From the NCBI GenBank assembly GCA_965208675.1, contig OZ242351.1:4128001-4192000 (forward strand): a DNA stretch of 64,000 bases, given 5' to 3'. Below are positions 20,056 through 37,592 of this stretch, in pieces; positions within the stretch are counted from its first letter, which is position 1; each line of letters opens with the position of its first letter. This DNA is from Candidatus Poribacteria bacterium (GTDB lineage: Bacteria; Poribacteria; WGA-4E; PCPOR2b). The notes under the pieces are model-generated. The model did no database searches. It had not been told where the DNA came from and saw nothing but the letters and a program-made list of their open reading frames with translations. Both the position numbers and the translations under genes were made by a program.

Positions 20056-20100
20056 TAGTAACCGCTCAACCCCGAATTCTGACATCGGGTTGATTTTTTT
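20056..20100 (-). promoter_or_regulatory. Putative ECF promoter of copy 1
   Basis: A-tract, then TGTCAG-N16-GTTACTA on the - strand; one of five copies of this motif. Confidence 0.65.
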
Positions 20101-20296
20101 GAGGAGAAACGTCGCAACCGCTACAGGGGAATTGAAAGCGTTCCCGCGAATATTTTACTTTGTCTGAATCAGGATTGACAGGATTTTAGGATATTCAGGA
20201 TGTTGCATCCGCTCATACTGAAACTGATTGTGCACAGACGTGAACATTGGGGGACAGGAAATGGGGATGCACATGCAGTGGATGTTTGCCGTGTAT

Positions 20297-20346
20297 AGAA
20301 AAGAAAAAGGCGTCCATCTGCCGTGAAACTGGGGCAAATGGACGCC
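20297..20346 (-). terminator. Intrinsic terminator after copy 2
   Basis: GGCGTCCATTTGCC-loop-GGCAGATGGACGCC followed by TTTTTCTTTTCT. Confidence 0.8.
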
Positions 20347-20399
20347 GTTATTAAACTCTCAAATTATGGGCGTGTCTGTTGTATACTTTGAGGAATCCG

Positions 20400-23321
20400 C
20401 TATTGATTGACGAGATGACTCACATCAATGCTCCAACACGACTTTACCGAATCGACCTGCCTTAGTAGGATTGTTTCGCCGTCGGGAGACATAGAGAGTG
20501 GTCGAGCATTCATCGGAGCACGAGCCGAGAGTTCGGAGGATATCGCGCCATTTGACGATACGCGTTGCAACTTCCCATGCGGTCCGAATGCATGATACGT
20601 TGCCCCATCCGATGACCAGCTCGACGGAATATAATTCCTATGCAACTTCTTCGGTTGCCCGCCGTTAATTGATATAACCCACCAAGCCCCGTCGTTTGTT
20701 TTGTACGTGAGTTGTTTGCCATTGGGCGTCCAATGGATTTCCGATTCCCCTTCGTTGCGAGTGTTGGTAATTTGCCTTGACTCCCCACCGGTTGCGGGTA
20801 CAATGTGGATGTCGTCAGGCGGCGATTTTTTGTACGCCAGTATTGTACCATCGGGCGACCAAGCTGGTTCGCCGAACCGGCCTGAATCTGCCATTAGTAT
20901 CTTCACTTTACCGTCCGATACGGAAACGACGCAAAGTTGCGACTCCGGGCCACTTTGCATCTCAGTTCTTCTCGTTATCCCATTGATGAAAGCGATTGTT
21001 TGACCATCAGGCGACCAGCGTAGATGGGAGGGCCACGATTCGCCATGCGTCAACTGTCTGGGTGTTCCACCTGGCACTGGTATGATGTACAATTGGCGTT
21101 CAGTGTCGGGGTGTTTAACCATAATCACAAATGCGATTTGTTTTTCATCAGGAGAAAGGGTAGATTCGTCAAAATTTATTTCTTTGAAAAATTCAAGAAG
21201 TTGACTGCGAGTAAAACGGTTGGTTTCAATGTCTAAAATCCCGCATCTCGCACCACTGCCAGGCAAGTTCACGCTAGATGGGAAAAACAGACGATTCCCG
21301 CCAGAGAGCCACTGTACACCTATAAGTTGCGGATCTGTAAGCGGAAAAAGCGGAATACTCGTCGGAAAACGCGGAACGTGGTAAATGCTCGTATCAGTAT
21401 TGAGGTAGCGTCGTGCGCCACGTTTTGTCTGGACGTTAAAATAGGCAGCTTCACTGCGGTAGCATAGTGTACCGCTTTTTGTTTTGAGAGCAGCGTAGGT
21501 AACCTTTATGCGATCCTCTTGTAGAATGATGATTTTTCCGCCCGGTGTCCACCGCAAAAGTTTCGGTGCATATTGAAATTTCTCCGGTTCAATTAAAATT
21601 GGATCTCCTGCTAAGTCGCCATGTTCGTTGAAGTGGTCAACAGCAATGCCGGGAAACGAGAAACTGCCGTTCGTAACGGCAATGTTGTTGCGGGCAACCC
21701 ATTTTCCGTTGGGTGAATAAACGAACTCGTCTTGTATGGCAACAACGTTTATCGGTGTTGTCCCACCGCCATCAACAGGTTGTTTCCAGACAGGCTTGCC
21801 GAGATATGTTTCCCGAGATGAAGGGCGTTGCGATAAATAGAAAATCCAGTTTCCATCAGGCGACCACGATGGCGAGGTATTCCCTTTTCCGTCCGTTGTA
21901 AATGGGCGTACTACTCCGGTGTCTAGCGACACGATGCTAATATCCGTATTCTCTCCTGTCCATTTGACAAACGCAATCTCTTTGCTATCAGGTGACCAAC
22001 TGAGTCCACGCGAGTGCTTTTGAGAGTCGGTCCGGGCGAGGAAGCGCATTCTGCCGCCTGCCGCAGGAATAAGATATAAATCAATGTCACTTCCATAACC
22101 TTCCGCCCTCGGATATTGATGTTCCTGACGATAAAAGGCGACCCACTTCCCGTTAGGCGACCACTTAGGTTGAAAATATTGTGTTGTTGCACCCTCTCCT
22201 TGCACTAGAACTGTTTTTTTAGGCGAGACATCGCTTGATGCGTCTACTAAAGGCGACACAATAAGTTGGAACTCATACCCTAAGGATGTAACTCCTCTGC
22301 CGAGGTAAACCATCTTCGTGCCATCGGGCGAAATGTCCATATCCCAAGAAGCATCATTTGGGAGATATATGCCCGTTGTCGTTATTTCCTCATTAGGATT
22401 GTCCATTTCCTCAGACTGGTTGATGGCTGTGGCTGCCTTTAACGGCTCCGGTCTCCGCCCAAAATCGCCATCTTCCCCTTCAGCGCCGAGTATCGCAACC
22501 CGAGTCGCTTCTGCATCTACGGGGAGGTCGCCATCCTCGACAACCTGTGTATTCAGAGGCAGAGAGCCGCCGAGCCATTCGCCCAACGAATAAAGCGGGC
22601 TGTGCGGAAGGCTCAAACTCAAGAGTAGGAGAATTACGCCGCCTGCTGCGGACAGTCCCAAAGGCAGAGCGGTCTTGTGGGGCGCGGTTTGAATCTTTGC
22701 GTTACTGATTAACTCTACCACATGGGCGGTGAATCCCGGCTGTAATTTTCTTTCGGCAAAAGCAGTGCGTATCATTGGAATCATCTCCTCACTTAAGGCA
22801 GTTTTCAATTTTGCTCTGGCTCGCACGAGTCGCTGATCGATGGTATTGGGAGACACCCGTAACGTCTGTGCAATCTCCTTGCTTTTCATGCCAGCCATGT
22901 AACGGAGCATTAACACTTGACGGTGCATCTCAGGGAGAGAAGCCAATGCCTCATGGAGTTGTTCGTCTCTCAATTTTTCCAAATGTGCTTCCATGTCTGG
23001 TCGCTGTGAGACACTCTCATCTTGGTCGGCAAGGTGTGCCGTGTCAACCTTTCTTTTTTGGGCATAGTGAAAATCCTTACATCGGTTTGAAGCAATCGAA
23101 TAGAGCCACGGATAAAAATTGTCCCATCGCCGCAGGGTTGATAGCTTCTTATAGGCGCTGAGAAAGACATCCTGAGTGATATCCTCTGCGTCTTGAAACT
23201 GGCCAACCTTTGCATACACGAGCGCGAAGATGCGCTCCTTGTATTTGTCAACCAACAGGGCAAATGCCTCCGTGTTGCCCGAAAGACATTGATGAACGAT
23301 ATTGCCATCTCCGGTGTGCAT
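20400..23321 (-). CDS. ECF sigma / TM / PD40 propeller fusion (copy 2)
   Basis: Same architecture; sigma4-TM segment almost identical to copy 1; C-terminal CWSIDVSHLVNQ. Confidence 0.9.
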   Translation of the reverse strand: MHTGDGNIVHQCLSGNTEAFALLVDKYKERIFALVYAKVGQFQDAEDITQDVFLSAYKKLSTLRRWDNFYPWLYSIASNRCKDFHYAQKRKVDTAHLADQDESVSQRPDMEAHLEKLRDEQLHEALASLPEMHRQVLMLRYMAGMKSKEIAQTLRVSPNTIDQRLVRARAKLKTALSEEMIPMIRTAFAERKLQPGFTAHVVELISNAKIQTAPHKTALPLGLSAAGGVILLLLSLSLPHSPLYSLGEWLGGSLPLNTQVVEDGDLPVDAEATRVAILGAEGEDGDFGRRPEPLKAATAINQSEEMDNPNEEITTTGIYLPNDASWDMDISPDGTKMVYLGRGVTSLGYEFQLIVSPLVDASSDVSPKKTVLVQGEGATTQYFQPKWSPNGKWVAFYRQEHQYPRAEGYGSDIDLYLIPAAGGRMRFLARTDSQKHSRGLSWSPDSKEIAFVKWTGENTDISIVSLDTGVVRPFTTDGKGNTSPSWSPDGNWIFYLSQRPSSRETYLGKPVWKQPVDGGGTTPINVVAIQDEFVYSPNGKWVARNNIAVTNGSFSFPGIAVDHFNEHGDLAGDPILIEPEKFQYAPKLLRWTPGGKIIILQEDRIKVTYAALKTKSGTLCYRSEAAYFNVQTKRGARRYLNTDTSIYHVPRFPTSIPLFPLTDPQLIGVQWLSGGNRLFFPSSVNLPGSGARCGILDIETNRFTRSQLLEFFKEINFDESTLSPDEKQIAFVIMVKHPDTERQLYIIPVPGGTPRQLTHGESWPSHLRWSPDGQTIAFINGITRRTEMQSGPESQLCVVSVSDGKVKILMADSGRFGEPAWSPDGTILAYKKSPPDDIHIVPATGGESRQITNTRNEGESEIHWTPNGKQLTYKTNDGAWWVISINGGQPKKLHRNYIPSSWSSDGATYHAFGPHGKLQRVSSNGAISSELSARAPMNARPLSMSPDGETILLRQVDSVKSCWSIDVSHLVNQ

Positions 23322-23359
23322 CGGTGTTCCCTCGTATGAGATTGGTGTTACTATCTATA

Positions 23360-23405
23360 TAGAAGCCGCTTAACCCCGAATTCTGACATCGGGTTGATTT
23401 TTTTG
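23360..23405 (-). promoter_or_regulatory. Putative ECF promoter of copy 2
   Basis: A-tract, then TGTCAG-N16-GCTTCTA. Confidence 0.65.
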
Positions 23406-23596
23406 AGGAGAAACGTCGCAACCGCTACAGAAGAATTGAAGGGTTTCCTGTGAATATTGTACTCTGACTGAATCAGGATTTACAGGGTTAAAGGATTTTC
23501 AGAATATTATGCCTTCTCACACGGGAATCAATTGTGCAACAATGAAAACATTAGGGGTAAGCATGTGAGAATGCGCATTCAGTCATTAACCCATAC

Positions 23597-23646
23597 AGAA
23601 AAGAAAAAGGCGTCCATCTGCCGTAAATCTGGGGCAAATGGACGCC
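23597..23646 (-). terminator. Intrinsic terminator after copy 3
   Basis: Same GGCGTCC...GGACGCC hairpin plus T-tract. Confidence 0.8.
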
Positions 23647-23699
23647 GTTATTGAACTCCCAAAATACGGGCGTGGCAGTTGTGTACTTTGAGAGTCTCG

Positions 23700-26539
23700 C
23701 TACTGACTGACTAGATGACTCACATCAATGCTCCAGCACTGTGTTCCTGAATCAATCAGCCGATACAGAATGGTTTCACCGTCGGGCGACATTGAAAGCG
23801 GACGTGCGTCCGCCGGAACGCGAAACGGCAATTCGTCAATTGTCGTGCCGTCGAGAGTTACGCGCTGCAGTTCGCCGTTTCGTCCAATGGCGAGATAAGA
23901 CCTTCCATCCGATGACCAACTAGATGGGATATAATTTCTTCGCATTGGCTTCGGTTTCCCACCGTCGATTGACATGCCCCACGCTTGTCCGCCTATCTCG
24001 AACGTCAACCGCTTTCCATCGGGAGTCCACGAGAGTCTCCCGAAGGGTGTCCAAGACAGCAATATTTCCCCTTCGGGTGGACTATTGGGTGGAGCGGCTA
24101 TTCGCTTGGATTTTCCGCCCGTTGCCTGAACAAGATAGATGTCGACCTCTGTCTCATCGAAATCCAAATCTAAGACCTTTCCCTTACCCTTCAAGCGGAG
24201 ATACGCGAGCATTGTTCCATCGGGCGACCAAGCTGCTCCCATGCACCGTTCGGTATCTATGAATGTTTTCACCTGACCATCTGATACAGAAGCGACGCAG
24301 AGTTTTGACTTGAAACCTACTGAGGCAGCGAATTTCGCGTTGATGAACGCGATTTTTTGACCGTCGGGCGACCAGCGCGGATTCATACCATAAAACTCAG
24401 TTTGTGTCACCTTTTTGGATGTCCCGCCACCCACCGGCATGATGTGAAGATGCGCACTTACGTCAGGGGATATTCCCGCTAGTGCCGGATCCGTCTCCTT
24501 GGGTTGCAAGTGCACGTATGCCGCCCATTTTTCATCGGGCGAAAGGCTAGATAAACCGAAGAACGTCTCATCTGGAAGTTCTATGGGTAGCTCCGTAAAC
24601 TGACCCGTTTCGATGTCGAAAAATCCGGGGCGTCGGTTTCTGTCAGACACAAATAACAGACGATTCCCGTCGGATAACCACTGTGCATTTTTAAACCCAA
24701 ACTTCGAATCTGAATTCACGTGGCGTTTTTCACCGCCTTTTATGCGGAAGGCATAGGTCTTCTCAATATAATCCTCTTGCAGGACGATGATTTTCCCATT
24801 CGGTGTCCAGCGCAACGGTTTTGCCCCCACCTGGAGTCTCGCCGCTTTGAGTAGAATTGGCTTCCCTACCAGCTCGCCATGTTCACTGACGCGCGCTGCT
24901 ATGAAACCGCTCTGTCCATCGGGTAGGTATTTTGTATAGGCAATCCACTTTCCATCAGGTGAATGAATTGGAGGGCTAAGACCAACACGCTCGTTTACTA
25001 CTGCTTTTCCTCCAGCAACAGGCTGTCTCCACACGCGGCGGCTATCAATCCAGAGCCCTCGTTTTGATGAATAGAAGATCCATTCTCCATCAGGCGACCA
25101 AGATGGGTTAGTGTTCTCTTTCCCATCCGTTGTGAAAGGACGTGCTGCTCCGCTGTTGAGCGCGACTATCCAAATATCCGTTTTTTTCCCTTTCATCTTG
25201 ACATACGCGAGTTCCTTGCTGTCAGGGGACCAACTTAGTCTGTCATATTTTTCGGAATCGGTATGTGCAAGGAAGCGCATCTTACCTCCCGAAGCAGGAA
25301 TCAGACACACATCATAATGTCCGTAGTCTTTAAGGCCGTATTCGAGACGATAAAAGGCGATTAACTTTCCATTAGGTGACCATTTAGGTTGTACAGGCTG
25401 TACGCTCTCCGAACCATCTACATAGATAATTTTCCGCTCTACCGGTGTATTGGAGTCTAATTCGGTTAGTGGATAAACTGCAATCGACGGCTGTCGTAGA
25501 GCATGCTCCGCCGGAAACGGCACATAGGCGAATTGTGTGCCGTCAGGCGAAATATCAATGTCCCAGCCAAGATCCAAATCATCGGGTACGTGTATGGCGG
25601 TTACCGTTATTTCCTCATTGGGCTGGTCAGTTTCAGCCGACCGTACAATGGCGCTGGGCATCTTATGTGATTTCGGTCTCCGTCCAAAATCGCCATCTTC
25701 CCCTTCAGCACCGAGTATAGCGACCCGAGTCGCTTGCGCATTTACGGGGAGGTCGCCATCTTCGACAACATGTGTTTTTAGAGGCAGAGAGCCGCCCAAC
25801 CATTCGCCAAACGGATAAAGCGGGCTGTGCGGAAGGCTCACACTTAAGAGTAGGAGGATTATTCCACCTACAGCGGATAACCCCAAAGGCAGCGCGGTCT
25901 TGTGGGGCGCCGTTTGAATTTTGGTGTCGCTGATAAACTCTACCACGCGGGCGGTAAATCCCGGCTGTAATCTTCTTTCGGCAAAAGCAGTGCGTATCAT
26001 TGGAATCATCTCCTCGCTTAGGACAGTTTTCAATTTTGCTCTGGCTCGCACGAGCCGCTGATCGATGGTGTTTGGAGACACCCGCAATGATTCGGCGATC
26101 TCTTTACTTTTCATGCCAGCCATATAGCGGAGCATTAACACTTGACGGTGCATCTCAGGGAGAGAAGCCAATGCCTCATGAAGTTGTTCGACTCTCACCG
26201 CTTCCGAATCTGCATCAACAGCCGCTTGGTGATTGAGATTCCGAGCGAGAACGTTCATGGTTTCAACCTGCTCCTTTTGGGCGCGGTAAAAATTCTTGCA
26301 CCTGTTGGCGGCAATCGAATAGAGCCACGGATAGAAATTGTCCCATCGCCGCAGTGTCGACAGTTTCTTATAGGCGTTGAGGAAGATATCTTGTGTTAAG
26401 TCCTCAGCGTCTTGAAATTGCCCGACCTTCGCGTACACGAGTGCAAAGATACGCTCCTTGTATTTGTCAACCAACAGGGCGAATGCCTCCGTGTTGCCCG
26501 AAAGACATTGATGAACGATATACCGTCTCTGGTGTGCAT
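23700..26539 (-). pseudogene. ECF sigma / TM / PD40 propeller fusion (copy 3) with a 1-bp deletion at codon 7
   Basis: ATG at 26539 reads ATG CAC ACC AGA GAC GGT -AT ATC GTT CAT, versus GGT CAT ATC GTT CAT in copy 1. The rest is open from 26474 to 23700. Confidence 0.8.
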
Positions 26540-26579
26540 AAGCGTTCTCTCGTCATGAGATGACTGTTACTTCCCTATA

Positions 26580-26624
26580 TAGAAACCGCTTACCCCGAAT
26601 TCTGACATCGGGTTGATTTTTTTT
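26580..26624 (-). promoter_or_regulatory. Putative ECF promoter of copy 3
   Basis: A-tract, then TGTCAG-N15-GTTTCTA. Confidence 0.6.
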
Positions 26625-26765
26625 GAGGAGAATGGTCACAATCGCTACAGTGAAACAGATTGTGTTCCTGTGAATATTGTAGCCCGCCTGAATCAGGATT
26701 GACAGGAATTTTGTGGTTTGTAGGATATGGGAATGCACATGCGGTGGAGGTTCCCGCGTGCGTAT

Positions 26766-26868: not shown

Positions 26869-29673
26869 TTATTGATTGACGAGATGACTCACATCAATGC
26901 TCCAGCACTGTGTTCCTAAATCAGTCCGCCGAAACAGAATCGTGTCGCCGTCGGGCGACATTGAGAGTGGGCGAGCATCCGTCGGAACACGAAACGGGAA
27001 TTCGTCGATTGTCGTGCCGTCGAGAGATACTCGCAGCAATTCGCCGTTTCGTCCAATGGCGAGATAAGACATGCCGTCTGATGACCAACTCGACGGGATA
27101 TAGCCTCTTGGCAACTTCTTTGCTTCTCCGCCATTGATTGATGCAACCCATACCTCTTCTAGATTCACCGCTCCTTGAATCATCAAATTGAAGATTAGCT
27201 GCTTTCCATCGGGTGTCCAAGAAATGTTGATTTCCTTTCCAGGAGTGTTGGTTATCTGCTTGGCGTCTCCGCCCGCTGCCGGTACAACGTAGATATCACC
27301 TTCCATGTCTCCTTTTAAGTTGAGATAGGCGATTGTGATTCCATCCGGAGACCACGCAGGGCTCATGCACCGTTCCGAATCTGTGAGTTTTTTCATTTGA
27401 CCGTCGGACGCGGATACGACGCAGAGCTGCGACTTGTAACTCTCTGGCGAGCCAATCATCGCGTTGGTGAATGCGATGTTTTGGCCGTCCGGCGACCAGC
27501 GAAGTTCGTTCGCATAAAGCAGGCCGCTGGTCAATTGACGGATTTTTCCACCACTAATTGGTGCAATGTGGATATGAATGTTTCCTTTGGGCAAGCCGCT
27601 GGTTTGCTCTACATTTTTGAGATCGAACAGTGTGAACGCAACTTCCCTCTCGTTCGGCGATAGGGTAAGGGCACGTAGCAACATCCCCTTCGGAAGTTCA
27701 ATGGGGAGTTCGGTATATTGACTTGTTTCGATGTCGAAGAGTCCGGGGCGTATGTCTAGATCTTTTAAAGACGCCAGTAACAGACGTTTACCGTCGGATA
27801 GCCACTGTGCGCCTCCTTCAAACAATAGCGCCGGATTGGAACTCGTGCGGCGTTGTTCCCCGTTTTTTACGTTGAGGGCATAGGTCATCTCTCTGCGATC
27901 TTCTTGCACCACGATTATTTTTGCGTCCTGTCCCCACCGCAACGGTTTCGCGCTCGCCCCGAGTCCCATCGCTTTGAGCAGCATCGGTTCGCCCGACAAC
28001 TCACCCTGTTCGTTGACGCGACGTGTCAAAAAACCGAATTTAGCCTCGGGCAGATAGACGCCCGTGTAGACAACCCACTTGCCATCTGGTGAATAGATAG
28101 GAGACTGAACGATGGTGACATAATCATTTTCTATTACCGTCGCTTTACCGCCCTGAACCGGCTGTTTCCGCACGCGGTGGCTATCGTCCGAGGTGGATCG
28201 TCGCGATAAATAAGAAATCCACTTACCGTCCGGCGACCAGGATGGTTGAATATTCTCCTTTCCATCTGTTGTGAAGGGGCGAACCTCTTGGGTGTCGAGC
28301 GATACAATCCAAATGTCTGCTATCCTCTCCTTCCAGTTAATCCACTTGACAAACGCAAGATTCAAACTGTCAGGTGACCAACTCAATCCGCCAGACTGTT
28401 CAGAATTGGATTGCGGAAGCACGCGCATCTCGTCCCCTGACGCAGGAATAATGCAAACTTCATAGTGCTCACTATCTTCTTGATTGAGTTCGCTACGATA
28501 AAAAGCAATCCATCCTCCATCAGGCGACCATCGAGGTCGCGCTAACCGTACGTTGTTTGAACCATCGAGAAAGATGTCTTTCCGTTCTGCCGGTGCACTG
28601 GGGGCTAATCCTGTAAAAGGATAGAGTGCGAGAACCGGCTTCCATTGAGGCACATAGACAAATTGTGCACCATCGGGGGAGATGTCAATATCCCAAAGGT
28701 TAGAGCCCAAGTCATCGGGCATGGATATGGCGGATACCGTTATTTTCTCATTGGGGTTATCCATTTCATCTGGCTGCCCCACGGCCGCCTGCGTCTTGAG
28801 CGGCTCCGGTTTCTGCCCAAAATCGCCGTCTTTCCCTTCAGCACCGAGTATGGCTACCCGAGTCGCTTCTACATCTACGGGGAGCTCTCCGTCTTCGACA
28901 ACCTGTGTATTCAGCGGCAGAGAGCCGCCGAGCCATTCGCCCAACGGATAAAGCGGGCTGTGCGGCAGGCTCAAACTCAAGAGCAAGAGAATTACCCCAC
29001 CTACTGCGGACAGCCCCAAAGGCAACGCAGTCTTGTGGGGCGCGGTTTGAATCTTTGCGTCGCTGATTAATTCGACCACACGGGCGGTAAATCCCGGCTG
29101 TAATCTTCTTTCGGCAAAAGCAGTGCGTATCATTGGAATCATCTCCTCACTTAAGGCAGTTTTCAATTTTGCTCTGGCTCGCATGAGCCGCTGGTTTATA
29201 GCATTCGGAGACACCCGCAACGTTTCTGCAATCTCCTTGCTTTTCATGCCTGCCATGTAACGGAGCACTAACACTTGACGGTACATCTCTGGGAGGGAAG
29301 CCAATGCGTCGTGGACTCGTTCATTTCTCAGTTTTTCCGAGTGCGCATCCATGTCTGCCTGGTGATTCTCATCCGAGTCAGCAAGATACGCAGCGCCAAC
29401 TAGTCCTTTCTGATCTCGGTGAAAATTCCTGCATCGGTTTACGGCAATCGAATAGAGCCACGGATAGAAATTGTCCCATCGACGCAGGGTTGATAACTTC
29501 TTGTACGCTTTGAGAAAGACATCTTGGGTTAAGTCCTCTGCGTCCTGAAACTGCCCAACCTTTGCGTACACGAGCGCGAAAATGCGCTCTTTATATTTAT
29601 CAACCAACAGGGCAAATGCCTCCGTGTTACCCGAAAGACATTGATGAACGATTTGACCATCTGTGGTGTACAT
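26869..29673 (-). CDS. ECF sigma / TM / PD40 propeller fusion (copy 4)
   Basis: Same architecture; sigma4.2 SPNAINQRLMRAR. Confidence 0.9.
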   Translation of the reverse strand: MYTTDGQIVHQCLSGNTEAFALLVDKYKERIFALVYAKVGQFQDAEDLTQDVFLKAYKKLSTLRRWDNFYPWLYSIAVNRCRNFHRDQKGLVGAAYLADSDENHQADMDAHSEKLRNERVHDALASLPEMYRQVLVLRYMAGMKSKEIAETLRVSPNAINQRLMRARAKLKTALSEEMIPMIRTAFAERRLQPGFTARVVELISDAKIQTAPHKTALPLGLSAVGGVILLLLSLSLPHSPLYPLGEWLGGSLPLNTQVVEDGELPVDVEATRVAILGAEGKDGDFGQKPEPLKTQAAVGQPDEMDNPNEKITVSAISMPDDLGSNLWDIDISPDGAQFVYVPQWKPVLALYPFTGLAPSAPAERKDIFLDGSNNVRLARPRWSPDGGWIAFYRSELNQEDSEHYEVCIIPASGDEMRVLPQSNSEQSGGLSWSPDSLNLAFVKWINWKERIADIWIVSLDTQEVRPFTTDGKENIQPSWSPDGKWISYLSRRSTSDDSHRVRKQPVQGGKATVIENDYVTIVQSPIYSPDGKWVVYTGVYLPEAKFGFLTRRVNEQGELSGEPMLLKAMGLGASAKPLRWGQDAKIIVVQEDRREMTYALNVKNGEQRRTSSNPALLFEGGAQWLSDGKRLLLASLKDLDIRPGLFDIETSQYTELPIELPKGMLLRALTLSPNEREVAFTLFDLKNVEQTSGLPKGNIHIHIAPISGGKIRQLTSGLLYANELRWSPDGQNIAFTNAMIGSPESYKSQLCVVSASDGQMKKLTDSERCMSPAWSPDGITIAYLNLKGDMEGDIYVVPAAGGDAKQITNTPGKEINISWTPDGKQLIFNLMIQGAVNLEEVWVASINGGEAKKLPRGYIPSSWSSDGMSYLAIGRNGELLRVSLDGTTIDEFPFRVPTDARPLSMSPDGDTILFRRTDLGTQCWSIDVSHLVNQ

Positions 29674-29711
29674 GGGCGTCCTCTCGCAAAAGATGGTTGT
29701 TTTTATCTATA

Positions 29712-29757
29712 TAGAAACTGCCCACCCCCGAATTATTACACTTGGGGAATTTTTTTT
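29712..29757 (-). promoter_or_regulatory. Putative ECF promoter of copy 4
   Basis: A-tract, then TGTAAT-N16-GTTTCTA. Confidence 0.65.
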
Positions 29758-29917
29758 ATGAGAATAGCTGCAACTACTTAAGCAGTATTGAAGGTTTACC
29801 TGTGAATATTGTACTCTGTCTGAACCAGGATTTACAGGATTTTAGGACTTGCAGGATGTTGCATCGGCTCGCAGGCAATTGAAAATGCCACTAGTGAATA
29901 TATTGAGGGACAGAGAG

Positions 29918-30265: not shown

Positions 30266-33127
30266 CTATTGACTGACTAGATGACTCACATCAATGCTCC
30301 AGCACTGTGTTTCTGAATCAATCAGCCGATACAAAATGGTTTCACCGTTGGGCGATATTGAGAGCGGACGTGCATCCACCGGAACACGAAACGGTAATTC
30401 GTCAATTTTCGTGCCGTCGAGAGATACCCGCTGCAATTCGCCGTTTCGTCCAAATGCGAGATAAGATGTTCCATCCGATGACCAACTCGACGGGATAAAA
30501 TTTCTTTGCATTGGCTTCGGTTCCCCACCATTGATTGAAATAACCCACGCTTGCCCGCTTATCTCGAAGGTCAACCGTTTTCCGTCGGGTGTCCAACAAA
30601 GACTCCCATCAGGTGTCCAAGGCAGGAGTATCTCTCCTTCGGGTGGACTATCGGGTGGAGCACTGATTCGCTTGGATTCTCCGCCCGTTGCCGGAACAAG
30701 ATAGATGTCAACCTCTGTCTCATCGAAATCCAAATCTAAGACCTGTCTCTTACCCTTCAAGCGGAGGAACGCGAGCATCGTTCCATCTGGCGACCAAGCT
30801 GCTCCTGAGCACCGTTCGGTATCTGTGAATGTTTTCACCTGACCATCTGATACAGAAGCGACGCAGAGTTTTGACTCGAAACCAACTGATGCTGCGAGAT
30901 TAGCGTTGATAAACGCGATTTTTTTACCGTCGGGCGACCAGCGGGGGTTAATCCAAATAAACTCGGTTTGTGCCATCTGTTTGGAAGTTCCACCTGTTAC
31001 GGGCATGATGAGAAGATGCGCACTTACTTGGGGTACTCCGTCGACAAGTTTATGGGGCGTTTTGCGATGAATCTGCACATATGCAACCCACTTTTCATCG
31101 GGCGAAAGGGTGGCCCCGCTGAGCCATGTTCCCTCTGGGAGTTCGATGGGTAGCTCGGTGAATCGACCAGTTTCGATGTCCAAAAAACCGGGGCGCCGCT
31201 CTTTGCTAGAAACTAGAAAAAGCCGATTCCCGTCTGATTGCCACTGTGCGCCTTCAAACCAAAAGTCGGGATTGGAACTTACACGTCGTTGTTCGCCATT
31301 CTTTATATTGAGTGCATAGGTCATTTCTGTGTAGGCTTCTTGCAGTACGATTAGTCTTCCGTCTGGCGTCCACCGCAACGGTTTTGCGCCCACTTGGAGT
31401 CTCGCCGCTTTGAGGAAAATTGGTTCGCCTGTTAGCTCACCTTGTTCGTTGACTCGCGATGCAATAAAACCGCTTTTTCCATCGGGTAAGTAGTTCGTGT
31501 AGGCAACCCACTTTCCGTCGGGTGAGTGAATGGGTGGGTAGATGAGATGAAACCCTTCATTTACTGTTGCTTCACCATCCCGCACAGGCTGCCGCCATAC
31601 GCGGAGGCTATTTATCAAGAGGCCTCGTTTTGATGAATAGGCAATCCATTCACCATCAGGCGACCATGAGGGATCGGTGTTTTCTTTTCCATCCGTCGTG
31701 AATGGACGCACTGCGCCTGTTTCGAGCGAGACGATGTAAATGTCCGATTTCTTTCCTTTCGACCTAACAAACGCTAGTTCTTTGCTATCCGGAGACCAAC
31801 TTAACCAACCTGGGTGGTTGGTAGAATTGGTGTGCGCCAGGAAGCGTAATGCCCCGCCTGATGCGGAAACCAGATACACGTCCATATCTTTTCCATACGG
31901 ACCAATAGTCTCTCCCACACCGGGAACGTATGCAGTGTAAACATGACGATAAAATGCAATCCACTGACCGTCTGGAGACCATTTCGGCTGATAGTAATTC
32001 GCGATATCCTCCTCCAATATAACCGAGGGTTTAGGCGCCGCATTAGTTGTAGCCTCGACTAGAGGCTGAATCTGAAGCTGAGTCAAGTTGCTTGAAGATG
32101 TAAAATCGCGACCAACATATACCATTTTCGTTCCATCAGGTGAAAAATCAATATCCCACGACATGTCCAAATCGTCGGGCACATGAACTCTCGTGATCGT
32201 ACTTTTATTTTCGTTCATTTCCTCAGATTGGCCAAAGGCATCGGGCGCTTCAAACGGCTCCCGTTTCTGCCCAAACTCGCCGTCATTCCCTTCAGGACCG
32301 AGTATGGTAACCCTAGTTACTTCAGCATCTACGAGGAGGTCGCCATCTTTGACAACCTGTGATTTGGAAGGCAGCGGCCCACCGAACCAGTCGCGAAGCG
32401 GATGAAGCGGGTTTTGTGGCAGGCTCAAACTTAAGACTAGGAGAATTAACCCACCTGCAGCAGATAGCCCCACGGGTAACCCGGTCTTGTGGGGCGCCGT
32501 TTGAATCTTCGCCTCTCTGATAAACTCCACTACGCGAGCCGTAAATCCTGGTGATAATTTACGGTCGGCAAGGGCGGTGGGCATCATTGAAACTAGATCT
32601 TCACTCAGCACAGTTTTGAGCTTCGCTCTAGCTCGCATCAGCCGCTGATTGATGGTATTCGGAGACACCCGCAGCGTCTCGGCAATCTCTTTGCTCTTTA
32701 GCCCAGCCATGTAACGGAGCACTAAAACTTGACGGTGCATCTCAGGGAGGGAAGCCAGTGCTTCATGGATTCGTTGGTTTCTCAGGTTTTTTGCGTGCGC
32801 GTCCATATCTGCTCGATGGCTGTCGGATTGGTCGGCAAGGTACGCCGCATCAATCTGTCTGTATTGGGCACGATGGAAATCCTTGCATCGGTTCACAGCG
32901 CTTGAATGAAGCCACGCATAGAAATTGTCCCATCGTTTCAGCGTGGAGAGTTTTTTGTAGGCGTTGAAAAACACATCTTGAGTGAGGTCCTCTGCATCTT
33001 GAAACTGACCGACTTTGGCATACACGAGCGCGAAAATTCGAACTTTATATTTGTCAACTAACTCGGCGAATGCCTCCGGGTTGCCCGAAAGACATTCATA
33101 AACGATTTGCCTGTCACTCGTGTGCAT
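30266..33127 (-). CDS. ECF sigma / TM / PD40 propeller fusion (copy 5)
   Basis: Start MHTSDRQIV at 33127 by alignment with the paralogs; sigma4.2 SPNTINQRLMRAR; PD40 repeats. Confidence 0.9.
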   Translation of the reverse strand: MHTSDRQIVYECLSGNPEAFAELVDKYKVRIFALVYAKVGQFQDAEDLTQDVFFNAYKKLSTLKRWDNFYAWLHSSAVNRCKDFHRAQYRQIDAAYLADQSDSHRADMDAHAKNLRNQRIHEALASLPEMHRQVLVLRYMAGLKSKEIAETLRVSPNTINQRLMRARAKLKTVLSEDLVSMMPTALADRKLSPGFTARVVEFIREAKIQTAPHKTGLPVGLSAAGGLILLVLSLSLPQNPLHPLRDWFGGPLPSKSQVVKDGDLLVDAEVTRVTILGPEGNDGEFGQKREPFEAPDAFGQSEEMNENKSTITRVHVPDDLDMSWDIDFSPDGTKMVYVGRDFTSSSNLTQLQIQPLVEATTNAAPKPSVILEEDIANYYQPKWSPDGQWIAFYRHVYTAYVPGVGETIGPYGKDMDVYLVSASGGALRFLAHTNSTNHPGWLSWSPDSKELAFVRSKGKKSDIYIVSLETGAVRPFTTDGKENTDPSWSPDGEWIAYSSKRGLLINSLRVWRQPVRDGEATVNEGFHLIYPPIHSPDGKWVAYTNYLPDGKSGFIASRVNEQGELTGEPIFLKAARLQVGAKPLRWTPDGRLIVLQEAYTEMTYALNIKNGEQRRVSSNPDFWFEGAQWQSDGNRLFLVSSKERRPGFLDIETGRFTELPIELPEGTWLSGATLSPDEKWVAYVQIHRKTPHKLVDGVPQVSAHLLIMPVTGGTSKQMAQTEFIWINPRWSPDGKKIAFINANLAASVGFESKLCVASVSDGQVKTFTDTERCSGAAWSPDGTMLAFLRLKGKRQVLDLDFDETEVDIYLVPATGGESKRISAPPDSPPEGEILLPWTPDGSLCWTPDGKRLTFEISGQAWVISINGGEPKPMQRNFIPSSWSSDGTSYLAFGRNGELQRVSLDGTKIDELPFRVPVDARPLSISPNGETILYRLIDSETQCWSIDVSHLVSQ

Positions 33128-33255: not shown

Positions 33256-33855
33256 TTAGTCGGTTTTAGGTCGCTGGTGGATAAACTTGACCATGTATTC
33301 CCCTTCTTCCCTTCTCAATTCGAGGTGATTCCCATCGTCAGAGTGGATAAAATCCAGCGGGCCTCCATCATTGTACCAAAAATCATACAGAAATACGGGG
33401 TTTTCAAGGTCTCTTCTGATTTCCGGTGCTTCCTCCTTCGGTTCCACTCTGGTTACAATCAAATTTAATCGGAGTTTATTTTCACCTATGTAATATTTTC
33501 CCCGGAAGGTAACTACCAATTCTTGGATGTGTTCCCAGCCTTTCCATTCAAGCCAATGCAATTCATCCTCTTGTATGGGATATCTTTGTACTAGTTCAAA
33601 GATTCCATCTGCCGCCAGTGTCAGGATATTCGGGTTTGCGCCAGCAATTGACCCTTCAGAATCAATCTGGTTCATCACTACTCCATCCTTTAACCAAATT
33701 ATATCCATAAGACGCCAATCTCCCAAAATCGGGGAGTCGATATGGGCTGGCGGCTCGGTCGGGGTTTCCCCAACGGGATTTTCGGTATTTCCACACCCTA
33801 CGATGAAAACAAGTAAAATTCCAATTATTGTTGCCCAGGTCAATATTAATTTCAT
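33256..33855 (-). CDS. Lipoprotein with lipocalin-like domain
   Basis: Lipobox-like IVGC after a hydrophobic leader; ILGDWRL...LTLAADG.F...GKYYI lipocalin-like pattern. Confidence 0.6.
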   Translation of the reverse strand: MKLILTWATIIGILLVFIVGCGNTENPVGETPTEPPAHIDSPILGDWRLMDIIWLKDGVVMNQIDSEGSIAGANPNILTLAADGIFELVQRYPIQEDELHWLEWKGWEHIQELVVTFRGKYYIGENKLRLNLIVTRVEPKEEAPEIRRDLENPVFLYDFWYNDGGPLDFIHSDDGNHLELRREEGEYMVKFIHQRPKTD

Positions 33856-33883
33856 CTGTTCGTGTTCCCAACGTTGGTTTCAG

Positions 33884-34642
33884 TCAGTTCTGTGCTTTCA
33901 GCTTTCCCCACGTCGTCGACAATTTCTCTCCCAAGCGATTGACTGCCAAAAAACCAGGGCCGCCATCCGGCACATCGGGACCTGTCACCGTAAAATCATC
34001 CAACAGGATGTTACACCTTCCATAAAATAACAATCCAATCGTCCCCATAGGGACTGAATCTTCTTCTGTGAATAAACTAACATCGCCGATCGAAAAAGTG
34101 TAACCGTTTCCTTCGCGTTGAATGCTCAACGTGTACCAGACCCCTTTTTCGAATGCAAAGCGGCCCATTGCAGCGGTATTTTCGTGCAGGAGTTGCCAGA
34201 GTTCTGGATGATCCTCTATCACGTAACGCTCAATGGAAACAATCAAAACGTTGGGTTCTTCCGCGGAATGCCAGAACATAAATTTTATAAGCCCTTCATA
34301 TTTTCTTGTTTCTTCGTTAAATGACATATATTCAATCCACCAATAGCTGTCCTCCGGGCCTCGGATGTTCCTAACCATAAACTTCGATTCCATCGAGAAA
34401 TCTTTGATTCTACCTAGTCCCCAATTTAAGATTCTATATTGAGCATTTTGTTTTTTCCCTCTGTAATTAAAGTGACCATCAACGACGGCTGCGCTAAGCT
34501 CGTCATCAACCCGACCACTTCCCCAATCCCGAAGGGTTTTATCGCTGAAATCGTCTATCCACGTACCGGCGGTACAGATGCGTCCAAACACAGCCAGCCC
34601 TAGGAGAACAATCATGAATTGAACGGTTTTAATCGGCATCAA
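33884..34642 (-). CDS. Secreted ConA-like beta-sandwich protein with Poribacteria-type C-terminal TTW tail
   Basis: Signal peptide, AGTWIDDFSD, WYTLSI, GTIGL...DDFTVTGPDVPDGG, tail EKLSTTWGKLK. Confidence 0.65.
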   Translation of the reverse strand: MMPIKTVQFMIVLLGLAVFGRICTAGTWIDDFSDKTLRDWGSGRVDDELSAAVVDGHFNYRGKKQNAQYRILNWGLGRIKDFSMESKFMVRNIRGPEDSYWWIEYMSFNEETRKYEGLIKFMFWHSAEEPNVLIVSIERYVIEDHPELWQLLHENTAAMGRFAFEKGVWYTLSIQREGNGYTFSIGDVSLFTEEDSVPMGTIGLLFYGRCNILLDDFTVTGPDVPDGGPGFLAVNRLGEKLSTTWGKLKAQN

Positions 34643-34785
34643 ACTTCACCTCCCGTTGTAACTTTCACGTCTAGAGACAAAAAGATTGTAATTGATACGC
34701 TCAATTGTATCAAATCATCTCGTTAGCAGTGACTCCAGAAACTGGTTTCTAGAATTCCACGGATCTTCACCCACATTGTGTGGTT

Positions 34786-37011
34786 CTACTTGACGATAGC
34801 CATCCGCCGTATCGCGGTGTAATCACCCGCGCGGAGTTGGTAGAAATAGGTACCGCTTGTGACGGGTTCTCCGTTTTGATTGCGGCCGTCCCAATACGCG
34901 GCTGTTGCTTTGCCTCGGTAGATTCCCGCATTTTTGCGTCCAACGTCTAGCCTGCGTACGATTTGACCGCTCTGGTCATAGATTTTCAACGTCACGAGTG
35001 AATCGTCCGCCAACTGATACGGTATCCAGGTTTCGGGGTTGAACGGATTCGGATAATTCTGCAGCAACGCTGTCCGTTTGATGTTTCCCAGTGTTGTCAA
35101 ACGTCTCAATGACGGTTCCACGCCAAACGCATTCCAAGACGAAAGTTCCCACAGCAACACCGTCCCGTCACCACTTCCGCTAGCGAGTGTGAGTCCATCA
35201 TGACTGATCGCGACACTCCCGACGTTGCCTGTGTGCGCCGCGCGCATTTGGAGATGTTTTCCGGTTTCCGTGTCCCACAGTCGAATGGTAGTGTCTTCAC
35301 TTCCGCTCACGAGAGAACGCCCGGTGGGACTGAAAACCACGCTTAGAACCGCACTGGTATGTCCGTTAAGCAAATGCAGGTGTGTTCCGGTACTGGTGTC
35401 CCACAGACGGACGATAGTGTCCGAACTTCCGCTAGCGACCGTCAGGCCGTCGGGACTGAAAGCGACGCTCCGAACCGCATCCATATGCCCCCTAAGCGTT
35501 CGCAGATGTTTTCCGGAATCAGTGTTCCACAATCGAATGGTCTTGTCTCCGCTTCCACTTGCAAGCGTACCTCCATCGGGACTGAAGGCGACGCTGTAGA
35601 CACCAAATCTATGTCCCTTGATTGTTCGCAGGTGTTTTCCGTTTTCGGCGTTCCATAGACGAATGATAGCGTCCTCACTCCCACTTGCGATGGTGCCGCC
35701 ATCGGGACTGAACGCAATGCAATTGACAAAATCCGTATGAGTGGTAATCTTTCGCAAGTGATTTCCGTTGTTGGCGTCCCACAGACGAATAACACCGTCC
35801 GAACTTCCGCTCGCGATGGTACCTCCATCGGGATTGTACGCCACGCTAAAGATTGCAGATTTATGCCCCTTGAGCGTCTGCAGGAGTTTTCCCTTATTGG
35901 TGTCCCACAGACGGATGTTAGCATCCCAATTTCCGCTTGCGATAGTGCCGCCGCCGGGGTTAAACGCAACGCTAGTCACCGCATTCGGGTGTCCGGTGAG
36001 TGTTTGCGAGGGTTCTCCCGTATCGGGATTCCACAGGCGGATGGTATCGTCCCAACCCGCGCTAGCGATAGTATCGCCATTGGGACTAAACACAACGCTT
36101 TTGACCGAATTCGTATGCCCGTTGAACATTCGTAGGAGTTCTCCCGTATGGGCGTTCCATAATCGGAGGGTAAGGTCTAATCCCACGCTTGCGATAGTAC
36201 CGCCATCGGGACTAAACGCTATGCTCCTAATCCAATTCGTATTTGCGGCGAGCGTTTGAAGGTGCTCTCCCGTATCGGCGTTCCAGATACGGACGGTACC
36301 ATCCCAACTCCCGCTTGCTAAAGCACGCCCATCTGGCCTGAATACAACGCTATCGACCCAATTCGTATGCCCAGTGAGTGTTCGCAGTAATTCCCCCGTA
36401 TTGGCATCCCATAAACGAACGGTATCGTCTCCGCTTCCACTAGCGATCGTGCGTCCATCGGGACTAAACGCAATACTGTGGACTCTAGATCTATGCCCAA
36501 TCATCTTTCGCAGTTGTTCTCCCGTATCGGCGTCCCAAAGTCGTATGGTAGCGTCTTCGCTTCCACTGGCAATCGTGCGTCCATCGGGACTAAACGTCAC
36601 GCTTCGAATCACATCTGTATGCCCGTTGAGTGTTCGCAGTTGTTCTCCCGTATCGGCGTCCCACACATGGATTGGCCCCTCCCAGCCCCCATGGACAGCA
36701 GCATCCCAACCACCGCTAGCAATCATGTGACCATCAGGACTAAAGGCAAAGCTGACGACATCCGTTTGCGCTGCTCGCAGGGTAACCTCTTGATGAGTCG
36801 CCGTATCGTAAAGCCATACTCCAATACTACTTCCTACACCAAGTCGAGTGCCGTCCGGCGAATACTTAATCTCGCTTATTTTACCTTTGCCCAGGCGGGT
36901 TTTAGCGCCCTCTGGTAGACCCCATAGTGCAAAATCTTGTGCGATGCTGTGCGGTAAACATATAACGCCAACCAACAGTAAGCCAAAATTGAAAACTGCC
37001 GCTTTCTTCAT
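34786..37011 (-). CDS. Secreted WD40-repeat protein with FlgD-Ig / T9SS-CTD-like C-terminal domain
   Basis: About 13 GH...FSPDG..ASGS.D..IRLWD repeats; C-terminal LLQNYPNPFNPETWIPYQL...WDGRN...SGTYFYQL. Start MKKAAVF at 37011 has a GGAGG RBS. Confidence 0.9.
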   Translation of the reverse strand: MKKAAVFNFGLLLVGVICLPHSIAQDFALWGLPEGAKTRLGKGKISEIKYSPDGTRLGVGSSIGVWLYDTATHQEVTLRAAQTDVVSFAFSPDGHMIASGGWDAAVHGGWEGPIHVWDADTGEQLRTLNGHTDVIRSVTFSPDGRTIASGSEDATIRLWDADTGEQLRKMIGHRSRVHSIAFSPDGRTIASGSGDDTVRLWDANTGELLRTLTGHTNWVDSVVFRPDGRALASGSWDGTVRIWNADTGEHLQTLAANTNWIRSIAFSPDGGTIASVGLDLTLRLWNAHTGELLRMFNGHTNSVKSVVFSPNGDTIASAGWDDTIRLWNPDTGEPSQTLTGHPNAVTSVAFNPGGGTIASGNWDANIRLWDTNKGKLLQTLKGHKSAIFSVAYNPDGGTIASGSSDGVIRLWDANNGNHLRKITTHTDFVNCIAFSPDGGTIASGSEDAIIRLWNAENGKHLRTIKGHRFGVYSVAFSPDGGTLASGSGDKTIRLWNTDSGKHLRTLRGHMDAVRSVAFSPDGLTVASGSSDTIVRLWDTSTGTHLHLLNGHTSAVLSVVFSPTGRSLVSGSEDTTIRLWDTETGKHLQMRAAHTGNVGSVAISHDGLTLASGSGDGTVLLWELSSWNAFGVEPSLRRLTTLGNIKRTALLQNYPNPFNPETWIPYQLADDSLVTLKIYDQSGQIVRRLDVGRKNAGIYRGKATAAYWDGRNQNGEPVTSGTYFYQLRAGDYTAIRRMAIVK

Positions 37012-37260
37012 TGAAACAACCCTCCATATTTGGATTGGGGAAAATTTCTTCCAATTTCTTTTTTCCGTGCACGACCTTGGATTCAGAATCTGTCTTATTT
37101 GCCTGTTTGAACAATCCAAATCCGTTTTCGAGAGAGGTCATTTCATCGATTTCGGCTCTCGTGCTGAAAGGATTCGGTTTGTCCTGTGTCTTTAGTTATT
37201 CAACTTGCCTTCGCCCATAATAGCAAAGACTGAAGCGAAATTTCCTGTGTATTTGCGTTA

Positions 37261-37277
37261 AGCAATTCATGTGCCAA
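37261..37277 (-). promoter_or_regulatory. Putative sigma-54 (-24/-12) promoter
   Basis: TTGGCACATGAATTGCT on the - strand fits TGGCAC-N5-TTGC, about 250 bp upstream of the WD40 gene. Confidence 0.6.
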
Positions 37278-37545
37278 GACCAAAATTCCAAACATCATCG
37301 CCTGGGCCCGAGAACGGACAAGATTGTATTGGAGTGAACTGTTGTAGTAGTGATGCAAATTTGTAGCGCAAGTGTCACGGGTCTATGTCTGTGGTAAAGT
37401 CCAGAAGTGATAATGAGCTTGCTTTCAGCGGGTTTAAATTTTCTGACTTTAACGTGTACCAGACTTGTTGCCTTGATTGGTCTGAATTCTAGTTAGGATT
37501 AATTGAATCCGAGAATCAGACTGCGAATAAAATGCCCCGCATAAA

Positions 37546-37592
37546 TAGACGCCGCCCGACTTCGAATTATTACATCGGTCTGAATTTTTTTT
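37546..37592 (-). promoter_or_regulatory. Fifth copy of the putative ECF promoter, upstream of the WD40-to-sigma copy 5 gene string
   Basis: A-tract, then TGTAAT-N16-GCGTCTA, with the shared spacer start AATTCG. Confidence 0.6.

Follow-up and report, generated by a model that had tools for sequence, protein, structure and literature searches.

How ECF (extracytoplasmic function) sigma factors read their −35 element has been traced to a small number of contacts. In the sigmaE4/−35 complex of E. coli sigmaE (RpoE), Arg171 makes base-specific contacts at −31′ and binds the G opposite C−31, Phe175 touches a thymine methyl at −33′, Ser172 reads −34 and Arg176 reads −35 (Lane and Darst 2006, PMC1540707). 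By combining mutual information with saturation mutagenesis, a later study concluded that Arg171/−31 and Ser172/−34 set ECF specificity, also named Phe175 and the pairing of an acidic residue at Lys56 with −11A as specificity positions, and reported that single substitutions at the Arg171 position strongly changed the −31 preference in another ECF (Todor 2020, PMC7776599). Here we describe five tandem paralogous sigma factor genes (array copies 1-5, hereafter c1-c5) in a 64,000-nucleotide stretch of the genome of a sponge-associated member of the Poribacteria (the window, G000:C1:4128001-4192000 of a single-contig genome of 4,892,038 bases, 49% G+C). In this array two −35 hexamers appear to be matched to two recognition-helix types at the same contact positions.

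Two further kinds of system resemble the array in organisation. The sigmaI/RsgI systems of cellulolytic clostridia, like the array, comprise many paralogous autoregulated sigmas, each with a different extracytoplasmic sensor, and their crosstalk is limited by a variable −35 part beside a constant part; but sigmaI is marked by its own type of C-terminal domain and is paired with a separate anti-sigma, RsgI, whereas in the array sensor and sigma form one polypeptide (Ortiz de Ora 2018, PMC6056542). The array proteins carry an ordinary Sigma70_r4_2 domain and share 80-87% identity over the sigma part, and the intervals between their genes contain no separate anti-sigma gene. In ECF57 (WD40-like repeats), IutY/ECF243 and ECF48/52/53, as in the array, a C-terminal regulatory or sensor extension takes the place of a separate anti-sigma gene (PMC8999054; Casas-Pastor 2021, PMC7826278). 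Every array copy shares with the IutY type (ECF243) a transmembrane (TM) segment C-terminal to sigma4, and for IutY the published model is release by regulated proteolysis (PMC8999054). The array differs from the fused-ECF groups in its linker of only ~45 amino acids (aa) between sigma4 and the TM helix; Pfam gave no match at E ≤ 0.01 to a FecR-like anti-sigma domain of the IutY type, nor to a zinc-finger anti-sigma domain. By domain content the array can be likened to ECF57, its PD40 repeats corresponding to the WD40-like C-terminal repeats of that group. In ECF57 two conserved cysteines are proposed to link sigma2 and sigma4 (PMC8999054); the conserved cysteines of the array, C12 and C81 (c1, c2, c4), are both in the sigma2 part, with none in sigma4. 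Tandem arrays with concerted evolution, a feature of the present locus, are not mentioned for the fused ECF groups in the available portions of these two accounts (PMC8999054, PMC7826278).

All five genes lie on the minus strand (Table 1). In each copy Pfam places Sigma70_r2 and Sigma70_r4_2 at the N-terminus and PD40 (WD40-like beta-propeller) repeats in the C-terminal 650-700 aa. The Pfam scores are 55.4 bits for Sigma70_r2 (cut-off 24), 53.7 for Sigma70_r4_2 (cut-off 25.7), 35.5 for Sigma70_ECF (cut-off 21.1) and 138 for PD40. No region 3 sigma domain was matched by Pfam, leaving sigma2 and sigma4 only, as in ECF (group IV) factors. Among NCBIfam models only the superfamily model TIGR02937 (sigma70-ECF) passes its cut-off (97.3 bits, cut-off 42.9). 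Each copy has a single 19-mer window whose Kyte-Doolittle hydrophobicity exceeds 1.6 (aa 214-241), which predicts a TM segment after sigma4. By these predictions the array genes are ECF sigma factors joined via one TM helix to a presumably extracytoplasmic propeller.

The same motif precedes c1, c2, c3 and c4 and heads the gene string in which c5 lies. An A-tract is placed 9-10 nucleotides (nt) 5′ of the hexamer TGTCAG or TGTAAT, AATTCG follows directly 3′, and a −10-like block, T[T/A]CTAT or GTCTAT, has its first base 23-24 nt past the first base of the hexamer in all five motifs, an interval of 18 nt between the two elements (one base less in c3). The first-pass annotation had described five such copies; all were found, each on the minus strand, and a regular expression (TGTNNNAATTCG-N10-18-CTAT) run over both strands of the whole genome returned these five and one unrelated site. 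The common layout claimed there stands, but the −10 block is not constant between copies (Table 1), and what had been presented as a three-base difference between −35 variants (CAG versus AAT) comes down to two positions, the 4th and the 6th. With the −10 numbered G(−12)T(−11)C(−10), the hexamer spans −36 to −31. An intrinsic terminator follows c2 and homologous copies align 3′ of c3, c4 and c5; c1-c4 are therefore separate transcription units that need their own promoters.

Within the array, the hexamer and the recognition helix vary together, as first described. TGTCAG stands before the genes with helix SPNTIDQRLVRAR (c1-c3), and TGTAAT goes with SPN[A/T]INQRLMRAR, which is SPNAINQRLMRAR in c4 and SPNTINQRLMRAR in c5 (paired with the head motif). 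The post-sigma4 linker SEEMIPMIRTAFAER, previously said to unite c4 with c1-c3, is indeed common to these four and not to c5. A HMMER alignment to the RpoE chain 1or7_A (E 1.8e-17) places the N/D difference on chain residue 174, the shared Q on 175 and the M/V difference on 178. These chain positions would correspond to Arg171, Ser172 and Phe175, given three extra N-terminal chain residues that we infer from the lengths and the N-terminal alignment; we write D..V and N..M for the residue pair at the RpoE 171 and 175 positions. Together with the contacts in the sigmaE4/−35 structure, this alignment puts the residues that differ between classes on the bases that differ between classes, −31 and −33. 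Region 4 belongs to the same fold family as that of sigmaE by sequence, with R162, R165 and R167 invariant (alignment A1) and the helix ending, in both, in the conserved R-A-R (RpoE Arg176, Arg178). The two differ in the −35 element, GGAAC in E. coli against TGTAAT or TGTCAG here, and in the residues that read it: Arg171 against Asn/Asp, Ser172 against Gln, Phe175 against Met/Val (PMC1540707). The sigmaE complex is a solved structure; the array proteins are fused to a TM helix and a propeller, and their contacts are predicted from sequence.

Relatives were collected from 41 and then 176 Poribacteria genomes and their 5′ regions taken, giving 113 distinct sigma domains. Nearly all of these share the A-tract, the hexamer and a [G/T/A]T[C/A][T/A][T/A] block starting 24 nt past the hexamer start. 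In the close family (at least 68% identity; 29 distinct members, 24 with a proximal promoter) the −10 block lies 38-45 nt before the ATG. Over the 24 close-family promoters, information content rises from ~0.1 bit 5′ of the A-tract to 1.5-2.0 bit within the A-tract, the hexamer, the AATT and the −10; in the hexamer, only the 4th position (1.2) and the 6th (1.0) are soft. Blocks of −35 and −10 at fixed spacing upstream of the sigma gene are thus kept among orthologues, as expected of an autoregulated ECF promoter. The register of the hexamer is confirmed by its 5th base, A in 97 of the 97 domains entering the counts, and by the Arg171 members, 10 of 13 of which have C as the 6th base, as does E. 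coli sigmaE, whose residue 171 reads −31 and residue 175 touches −33 (PMC1540707).

The covariation persists in this larger set, where its disappearance had been named as a refuting outcome. In the 24 close homologues that have a promoter, TGTCAG accompanies D..V in 5/5 cases and TGTAAT accompanies N..M in 16/17. Written out for positions 171, 172 and 175, D-Q-V has TGTCAG in five, N-Q-M has TGTAAT in 16 and TGTAAC in one, and N-Q-L has TGTAAT once (L093) and TGTCAG once (L141). Over all 97 rows, Asp171 (~7 helix types) is found with G−31 in 13 and C in 1, Asn171 with T in 25, G in 4 and C in 1, Arg171 with C in 10 and T in 3, and Leu171 with T in 13/13, Ala171 being mixed; at −33, Met175 goes with A (25/25) and Val175 with C (5/5). 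Two genomes with a single close-family gene are self-matching, G002 with D..V and TGTCAG and G001 with N..M and TGTAAT, and L142 (D-K-S, TGTCAG) and L158 (R-Q-S, TGTCAC) are sister genes on one contig. N..M/TGTAAT occurs in all other genera and in a paralogue family ~50% identical (L001, L098 and others); as the state in every other genus examined, it is probably ancestral. D..V/TGTCAG is confined to the genus of the window, in c1-c3, one gene of G003 and one of G002.

A search of 5.8 billion proteins with the sigma part of c1 gave 119 matches, 86 of them at at least 67% identity. The helix could be read by regular expression in 115/119: N..M in 60, D..V in 18, D..M and N..V in one each, and N..F, N..L, N..I and N..R in a few each. 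The two intermediates, P0006 (D..M, helix SPNTIDQRLMRAR) and P0031 (N..V, helix SPNTINQRLVRAR), are one cluster each among the 86 close-family clusters. Their longest contig is given as 25,814 nt in both cases, and recombination inside the 12 nt that separate the two codons may have produced them. A profile scan of genome contigs returned mostly generic ECFs and only two Poribacteria loci, and a metagenome contig scan returned one distant match (31%).

A second residue/base pair, absent from the first-pass annotation, co-varies at sigma2 and the −10. Across the 97 rows, Glu at the RpoE Lys56 position accompanies A−11 in 10/11 and a non-acidic residue accompanies T in 84/86; within the close family Glu occurs with TACTAT in 10/10 and other residues with T at −11 in 14/14. 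In the window c1 has Glu55 with TACTAT, and c2, c3 and c4 have Ser, Asn and Lys at this position with TTCTAT, so that the pair cuts across the −35 classes. It agrees with the published acidic-Lys56/−11A rule. The Asn84 position likewise follows −12: Met goes with A (21/21), Asp with G (27/30) and Ser with G (7/7). The upstream motifs are hard to assign to another sigma because the helix/−35, Lys56/−11 and Asn84/−12 covariation occur together. The logic, autoregulatory promoters combined with residue/base covariation, is that of the published ECF code, and its pairs, Arg171/−31, Phe175, acidic Lys56/−11A and Asn84/−12, are all visible in the Poribacteria family; that work surveyed 10,503 genomes and mutagenised three ECFs, whereas the array presents a recent two-residue/two-base switch between tandem paralogues (PMC7776599).

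The class split does not follow whole-gene similarity, as the first-pass annotation had held; this is seen in balanced quartets, an interleaved tree and the small number of class-fixed sites. The first 300 aa are 79-87% identical among c1-c4 (G000), and the propellers 43-57% (those of c3 and c5 70%). No single tree fits c1-c4, since the quartet site patterns are balanced (19, 18, 16). In a tree built without the helix columns D..V and N..M genes interleave, c1 grouping with the N..M gene of G003 (Shimodaira-Hasegawa-like approximate likelihood ratio test, SH-aLRT, 91) and c3 plus the D..V gene of G002 grouping with the N..M gene of G001 (SH-aLRT 99). When eight genes of the genus were divided by hexamer alone and compared from −130 to +900, the class-fixed coding columns were +74 and +473 (both third codon positions), +483 (D/N) and +495 (V/M). 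Amid 106 variable positions in 300 codons, the class-fixed residues were 160 (D/N), 164 (V/M) and 263; under other 3|5 splits of the eight genes the fixed differences numbered 12, 7, 5 and 5. Two of three fixed sites would coincide by chance with the three contact positions defined by the literature at a probability of ~2e-4 (arithmetic from the class-fixed counts). Nucleotide differences specific to c4 cluster at the helix (6-7 in 20 nt, synonymous ones included), and in the ~80 nt that follow c1-c4 do not differ at all; such a pattern would be expected if any conversion tract overwriting the helix were lost.

A single unit is repeated along the array. It runs from the last ~100 nt of one gene (tail CWSIDVSHLVxQ) through terminator, spacer and promoter into the next gene, of which it takes in the opening ~900 nt (sigma, linker, TM), and this cassette is 79-87% identical among c1-c4 (window 17219-33154 and spacers). 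The pattern looks like concerted evolution of a signalling module with diversifying sensors. Elsewhere, sigma/TM modules 86-91% identical to c1 are joined to WD40 rather than PD40 propellers, and modules 52-58% identical to Kelch repeats (proteins of the P0009-P0013, P0087-P0089 group); by their predicted domains, these fusions are sensor-type swapping on a constant signalling module.

From these data we consider it probable that the motifs are ECF-type promoters read by the downstream gene's own sigma, and that the array contains two matched −35 specificity classes. Each motif would comprise a UP-like A-tract, a −35 at −36 to −31 and a −10 (GTC, TTC or TAC at −12 to −10) and would be read by its own sigma, giving positive autoregulation. 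The protein would act as a one-component transmembrane sigma, with sigma2-sigma4 in the cytoplasm, a single TM helix and a divergent PD40 propeller outside the membrane. A signal at the propeller would release or activate the sigma part, probably through proteolytic cleavage on the model of fused sigma/anti-sigma proteins such as IutY, and the freed sigma part would then bring RNA polymerase to its own promoter. Asn160/Met164 would go with T−31 and A−33 (c4, c5, head) and Asp160/Val164 with G−31 and C−33 (c1-c3). In chemical terms Asn would pair with the template-strand A at −31 and Asp with the template-strand C, while Met would touch the thymine methyl opposite A−33, a methyl absent opposite C−33, where the smaller Val would sit. 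The second, independent module would lie at sigma2/−10, Glu55 with A−11 in c1 and non-acidic residues with T−11 in c2-c4. Taken together, the array would hold up to three partly insulated feedback circuits, with gene conversion evening out the cassette of promoter, sigma and TM between copies and the contact residues still matched to their bases. The homologue counts and the contact positions support the two specificity classes proposed at the outset (D..V with TGTCAG, N..M with TGTAAT); actual discrimination, like transcription start, autoregulation and the activation mechanism, we infer from the sequences.

A genome-wide scan bears on the reach of these regulators. Combining hexamer, −10 and A-tract gave 6 sites for TGTCAG and 8 for TGTAAT, against 1 and 4 for the reversed-hexamer controls, and among these the full-motif look is limited to the array, the head promoter and one paralogue; the site at genome position 4047068 is apparently inside coding sequence. 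With the full motif confined to these genes in the genome scan, the sigmas look like local, mainly self-activating regulators.

Several points weigh against two matched, self-read classes. The promoters of c1-c4 are paralogous DNA copied with the genes, so that the five occurrences of the motif are not five independent events, and the D..V/TGTCAG copies may all descend from one change. L141, the sole close-family gene of genome G059, is a clear and single exception, combining N..L with TGTCAG and a weak A-tract, although its relative L093, also N..L, has TGTAAT; L167 (D-R-S with AGGCAC) is a possible second exception with a weaker promoter call. Because Asn171 occurs with G−31 in 4/30 rows, the D/N difference alone does not set −31. 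As to the counts, 16 of the 113 rows were dropped beforehand for an absent or uncertain promoter or a truncated protein (c5, L118_768, L151, L152 and L094 among them), and promoters were called by our own scoring rule with one manual override (L139).

The phylogenetically corrected covariation test, proposed with the original claim, points in the claimed direction but falls short of significance (p ~0.25). In a quick IQ-TREE phylogeny of the 97 domains, built without the helix columns, independent pairs gave, for Asp171/G−31, 3.5 same, 0.1 opposite and 2.4 unchanged changes in 6 pairs (p ~0.25); for Arg171/C−31, 1.9 same and 0.3 opposite in 3 pairs (p 0.5); for Met175/T−31, 3.3 and 0.1 in 4 pairs (p 0.25); for Glu56/A−11, 3.0 and 0 in 4 pairs (p 0.25); and for Met84/A−12, 2.9 and 0 in 3 pairs (p 0.25). 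The tests run uniformly in the right direction and are not significant because the pairs are too few, and most trait definitions were chosen after the tables had been seen. A membrane-tethered sigma must moreover be released to act, a step proposed by analogy with fused systems. Sponge metagenomes contain part of the stretch, and no RNA run containing it was found among the 23 sequencing runs listed.

The alternative that survives best accepts autoregulated ECF promoters and takes their variants for neutral lineage markers: both sigma types would use both promoters about equally, and the differences would be left where conversion tracts missed. The restriction of D..V/TGTCAG to one genus, the N..L helices with both hexamers, the Asn171 members with G−31 in other subfamilies, the lability of position 175 in the close family (M, L, F, I, V, R) and the lack of significance in the tree-corrected tests would all fit it. 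We nevertheless judge it unlikely. The remaining differences sit on residue/base pairs that touch in the sigmaE4/−35 structure, contact positions make up two of the three class-fixed residues, and substitutions at the Arg171 position shifted the −31 preference strongly in another ECF (Todor 2020). Asp with G−31 also recurs in distant helix types unrelated to the window class, namely D-K-S (L095, L142), D-Q-N, D-S-N, D-Q-F, D-M-S and D-T-R/S (further loci L135, L128, L120, L097, L166 and L161).

That the motif is a promoter or operator for another factor, whether another ECF or a repressor, seems improbable to us. The genome does offer candidates, with ~45 ECF sigma-domain tblastn hits (of the top hits, 16 were examined and all 16 fall in open frames, of 716-1246 aa); TGTAAT also precedes the distant paralogue L001, and a conserved ATCCTG-repeat element lies 60-90 nt upstream. 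But over 97 genes the −35 and −10 vary in step with the helix and sigma2 residues of the gene that they precede, the hexamer agrees with the helix in genomes that have one close-family gene, and in the genome scan no full motif was found away from these genes. Least credible of all is that the motif is conserved repeat DNA copied with the genes, since, even though the c1-c4 intergenic regions are paralogous over ~300 nt and recurrence inside the array alone proves nothing, conservation across genera and families ends sharply 5′ of the A-tract and covers only blocks of promoter type whose distance to the ATG is constant, every unit has a terminator 5′ of it, and Rfam at its gathering threshold has no match in window 19900-38000.

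Of the array genes, c5 departs from the pattern in having no motif of its own in its 128-nt upstream spacer. The first-pass annotation paired it with the motif at the head of its gene string; the match of TGTAAT with an N..M helix holds, but the head motif lies ~4.4 kilobases and three genes upstream of c5 and the link is a putative one. The assignment rests on gene order, on the lack of a clear terminator in the gaps and on synteny in the sister genomes G003 and G001, where an N..M gene begins 43 nt past the same promoter core, with the same gene upstream. No remnant of an ECF gene was detected in the ~530-nt head leader by tblastn (E up to 10). The WD40 gene of the head string can be aligned colinearly over 620 aa (40% identity) to the WD40 sensor portion of a sigma-TM-WD40 fusion of G003 (L087), a gene that directly adjoins the syntenic promoter. 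The head-string gene may be a sensor that lost, or never had, its sigma part, an orthology open to doubt since WD40 repeats are generic. The c4-c5 spacer (window 29659-30285, 590 nt) contains extra sequence not in the other spacers, with very high summed contig depth in four runs (X1, X5, X6, X7; in X1 11,735 against 12-156 in most other bins), and looks like a high-copy repeat or mobile element.

Compared with c1, c2 and c4, copy c3 lacks 1 nt after codon 6 (near window 26521); its ATG at 26539 is therefore out of frame, and the frame restarts at TTG 26474 with the loss of ~22 N-terminal residues. In run X1, whose contigs agree with the window at every base of the listed pieces, there is no extra base at 26521, and contigs of three other runs have an extra G or A there, which may partly be cross-mapped paralogues. 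Several further members of the close family are shortened or interrupted (their open frames measure 289, 214 with one TAA, 275 and 339 aa; among them G001:C1:1124526, L090, and G029:C2:4591072, L094, and genes of genomes G062 and G032), which suggests frequent decay or truncation of array members.

Two further elements lie upstream of the ECF promoters. A conserved CTGTCA/TGTAAA-N17/18-TA[C/A]AAT ~90 nt 5′ of the motif is a second promoter candidate; a scan for sigma70-type promoters showed no excess (15 sites against 20.7 expected). The other, (A)ATCCTG repeated 2-4 times and ending in ATTCAGACA, is conserved 60-90 nt 5′ of the ECF promoters and also found upstream of other ECF-fusion genes, with copies at window ~20160-20200, 23470-23500, 26690-26720 and 29830-29860, at genome 2.756-2.779 Mb and elsewhere (8-20 genome copies, depending on the pattern). 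It overlaps a sigma70-like CTGTCA-N18-TA[A/C]AAT in c1 and c3.

Table 1. Coordinates of promoters, recognition-helix codons, genes and terminator of the array (window positions; promoter, domain and function assignments are predictions)
Feature	Position	Strand	Details
c1 promoter	20054..20110	-	A-tract; −35 TGTCAG (20084-20079); −10 TACTAT (20060-20055)
c2 promoter	23358..23414	-	A-tract; −35 TGTCAG (23388-23383); −10 TTCTAT
c3 promoter	26577..26633	-	A-tract; −35 TGTCAG (26607-26602); −10 TTCTAT; spacer one base shorter
c4 promoter	29710..29766	-	A-tract; −35 TGTAAT (29740-29735); −10 TTCTAT
Head promoter	37544..37600	-	A-tract; −35 TGTAAT (37574-37569); −10 GTCTAT; leader ~530 nt, then WD40 gene, DUF1080-like gene, hypothetical gene, c5
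c1 recognition-helix codons	19517..19555	-	Asp160 19540-19538 GAT = RpoE Arg171; Val164 19528-19526 GTG = Phe175
c2 recognition-helix codons	22815..22853	-	Asp 22838-22836; Val 22826-22824
c3 recognition-helix codons	26040..26078	-	Asp 26063-26061; Val 26051-26049
c4 recognition-helix codons	29173..29211	-	Asn160 29196-29194 AAC; Met164 29184-29182 ATG
c5 recognition-helix codons	32627..32665	-	Asn 32650-32648; Met 32638-32636
c1	17219..20017	-	Sigma70 r2 + r4_2, one TM helix (aa 214-238), PD40 beta-propeller; 932 aa; helix SPNTIDQRLVRAR; Glu55 = RpoE Lys56 position
c2	20400..23321	-	Architecture as c1; 973 aa; helix SPNTIDQRLVRAR
c3	23700..26539	-	Architecture as c1; listed open reading frame 23700-26474 from TTG; helix SPNTIDQRLVRAR
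c4	26869..29673	-	Architecture as c1; 934 aa; helix SPNAINQRLMRAR
c5	30266..33127	-	Architecture as c1; ATG 33127 (listed open reading frame from TTG 33154); helix SPNTINQRLMRAR; no promoter motif of its own
Intrinsic terminator after c2	20309..20346	-	14-bp stem then U-run; free energy −26.9 kcal/mol, z −8.06
WD40-repeat gene	34786..37119	-	Signal peptide, likely start ATG 37010, C-terminal sorting-type tail; first after head promoter
DUF1080-like gene	33884-34642	-	Weak Pfam match under cut-off; between WD40 gene and c5
Hypothetical lipoprotein-like gene	33256-33855	-	Between WD40 gene and c5

The recognition principle and the specific residue/base pairs are already published (Todor 2020; Lane and Darst 2006), insulation of paralogues via the −35 is known for sigmaI, and fused propeller extensions are known for ECF57; nothing is overturned, and the value of the array is mainly that of a ready-made natural test of the ECF code. 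What is new is the ECF-TM-propeller family in Poribacteria, the very small switch and its persistence against gene conversion. A full-text literature search combining Poribacteria, ECF and sigma factor found no paper, and the fusions form a large, apparently undescribed expansion of such sigmas in Poribacteria. The whole switch appears to consist of two residues and two bases at known contact pairs, in genes otherwise 80-87% identical, and a decisive swap test is therefore easy to design. The array would add natural entries to the ECF code: Asp/Asn at 171, Met/Val at 175 and Glu at 56.

More tentatively, the array may be a sigma family splitting into insulated circuits, an interpretation we find plausible yet somewhat doubtful. 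Copies of the same class would activate each other, and the D..V/TGTCAG and c1 Glu/−11A switches would separate circuits, so that the array would hold up to three partly insulated positive-feedback loops, each with different propeller sensors. Gene conversion would homogenise the promoter/sigma/TM cassette and erase other differences, while selection would hold the two modular switches and keep contact residues and bases matched. The general question at stake is how duplicated self-activating regulators escape crosstalk when protein and promoter have to change together. If the insulated-circuit interpretation is true, the rare D..M and N..V intermediates, as recombinants, would allow a one-residue/one-base code to be read directly.

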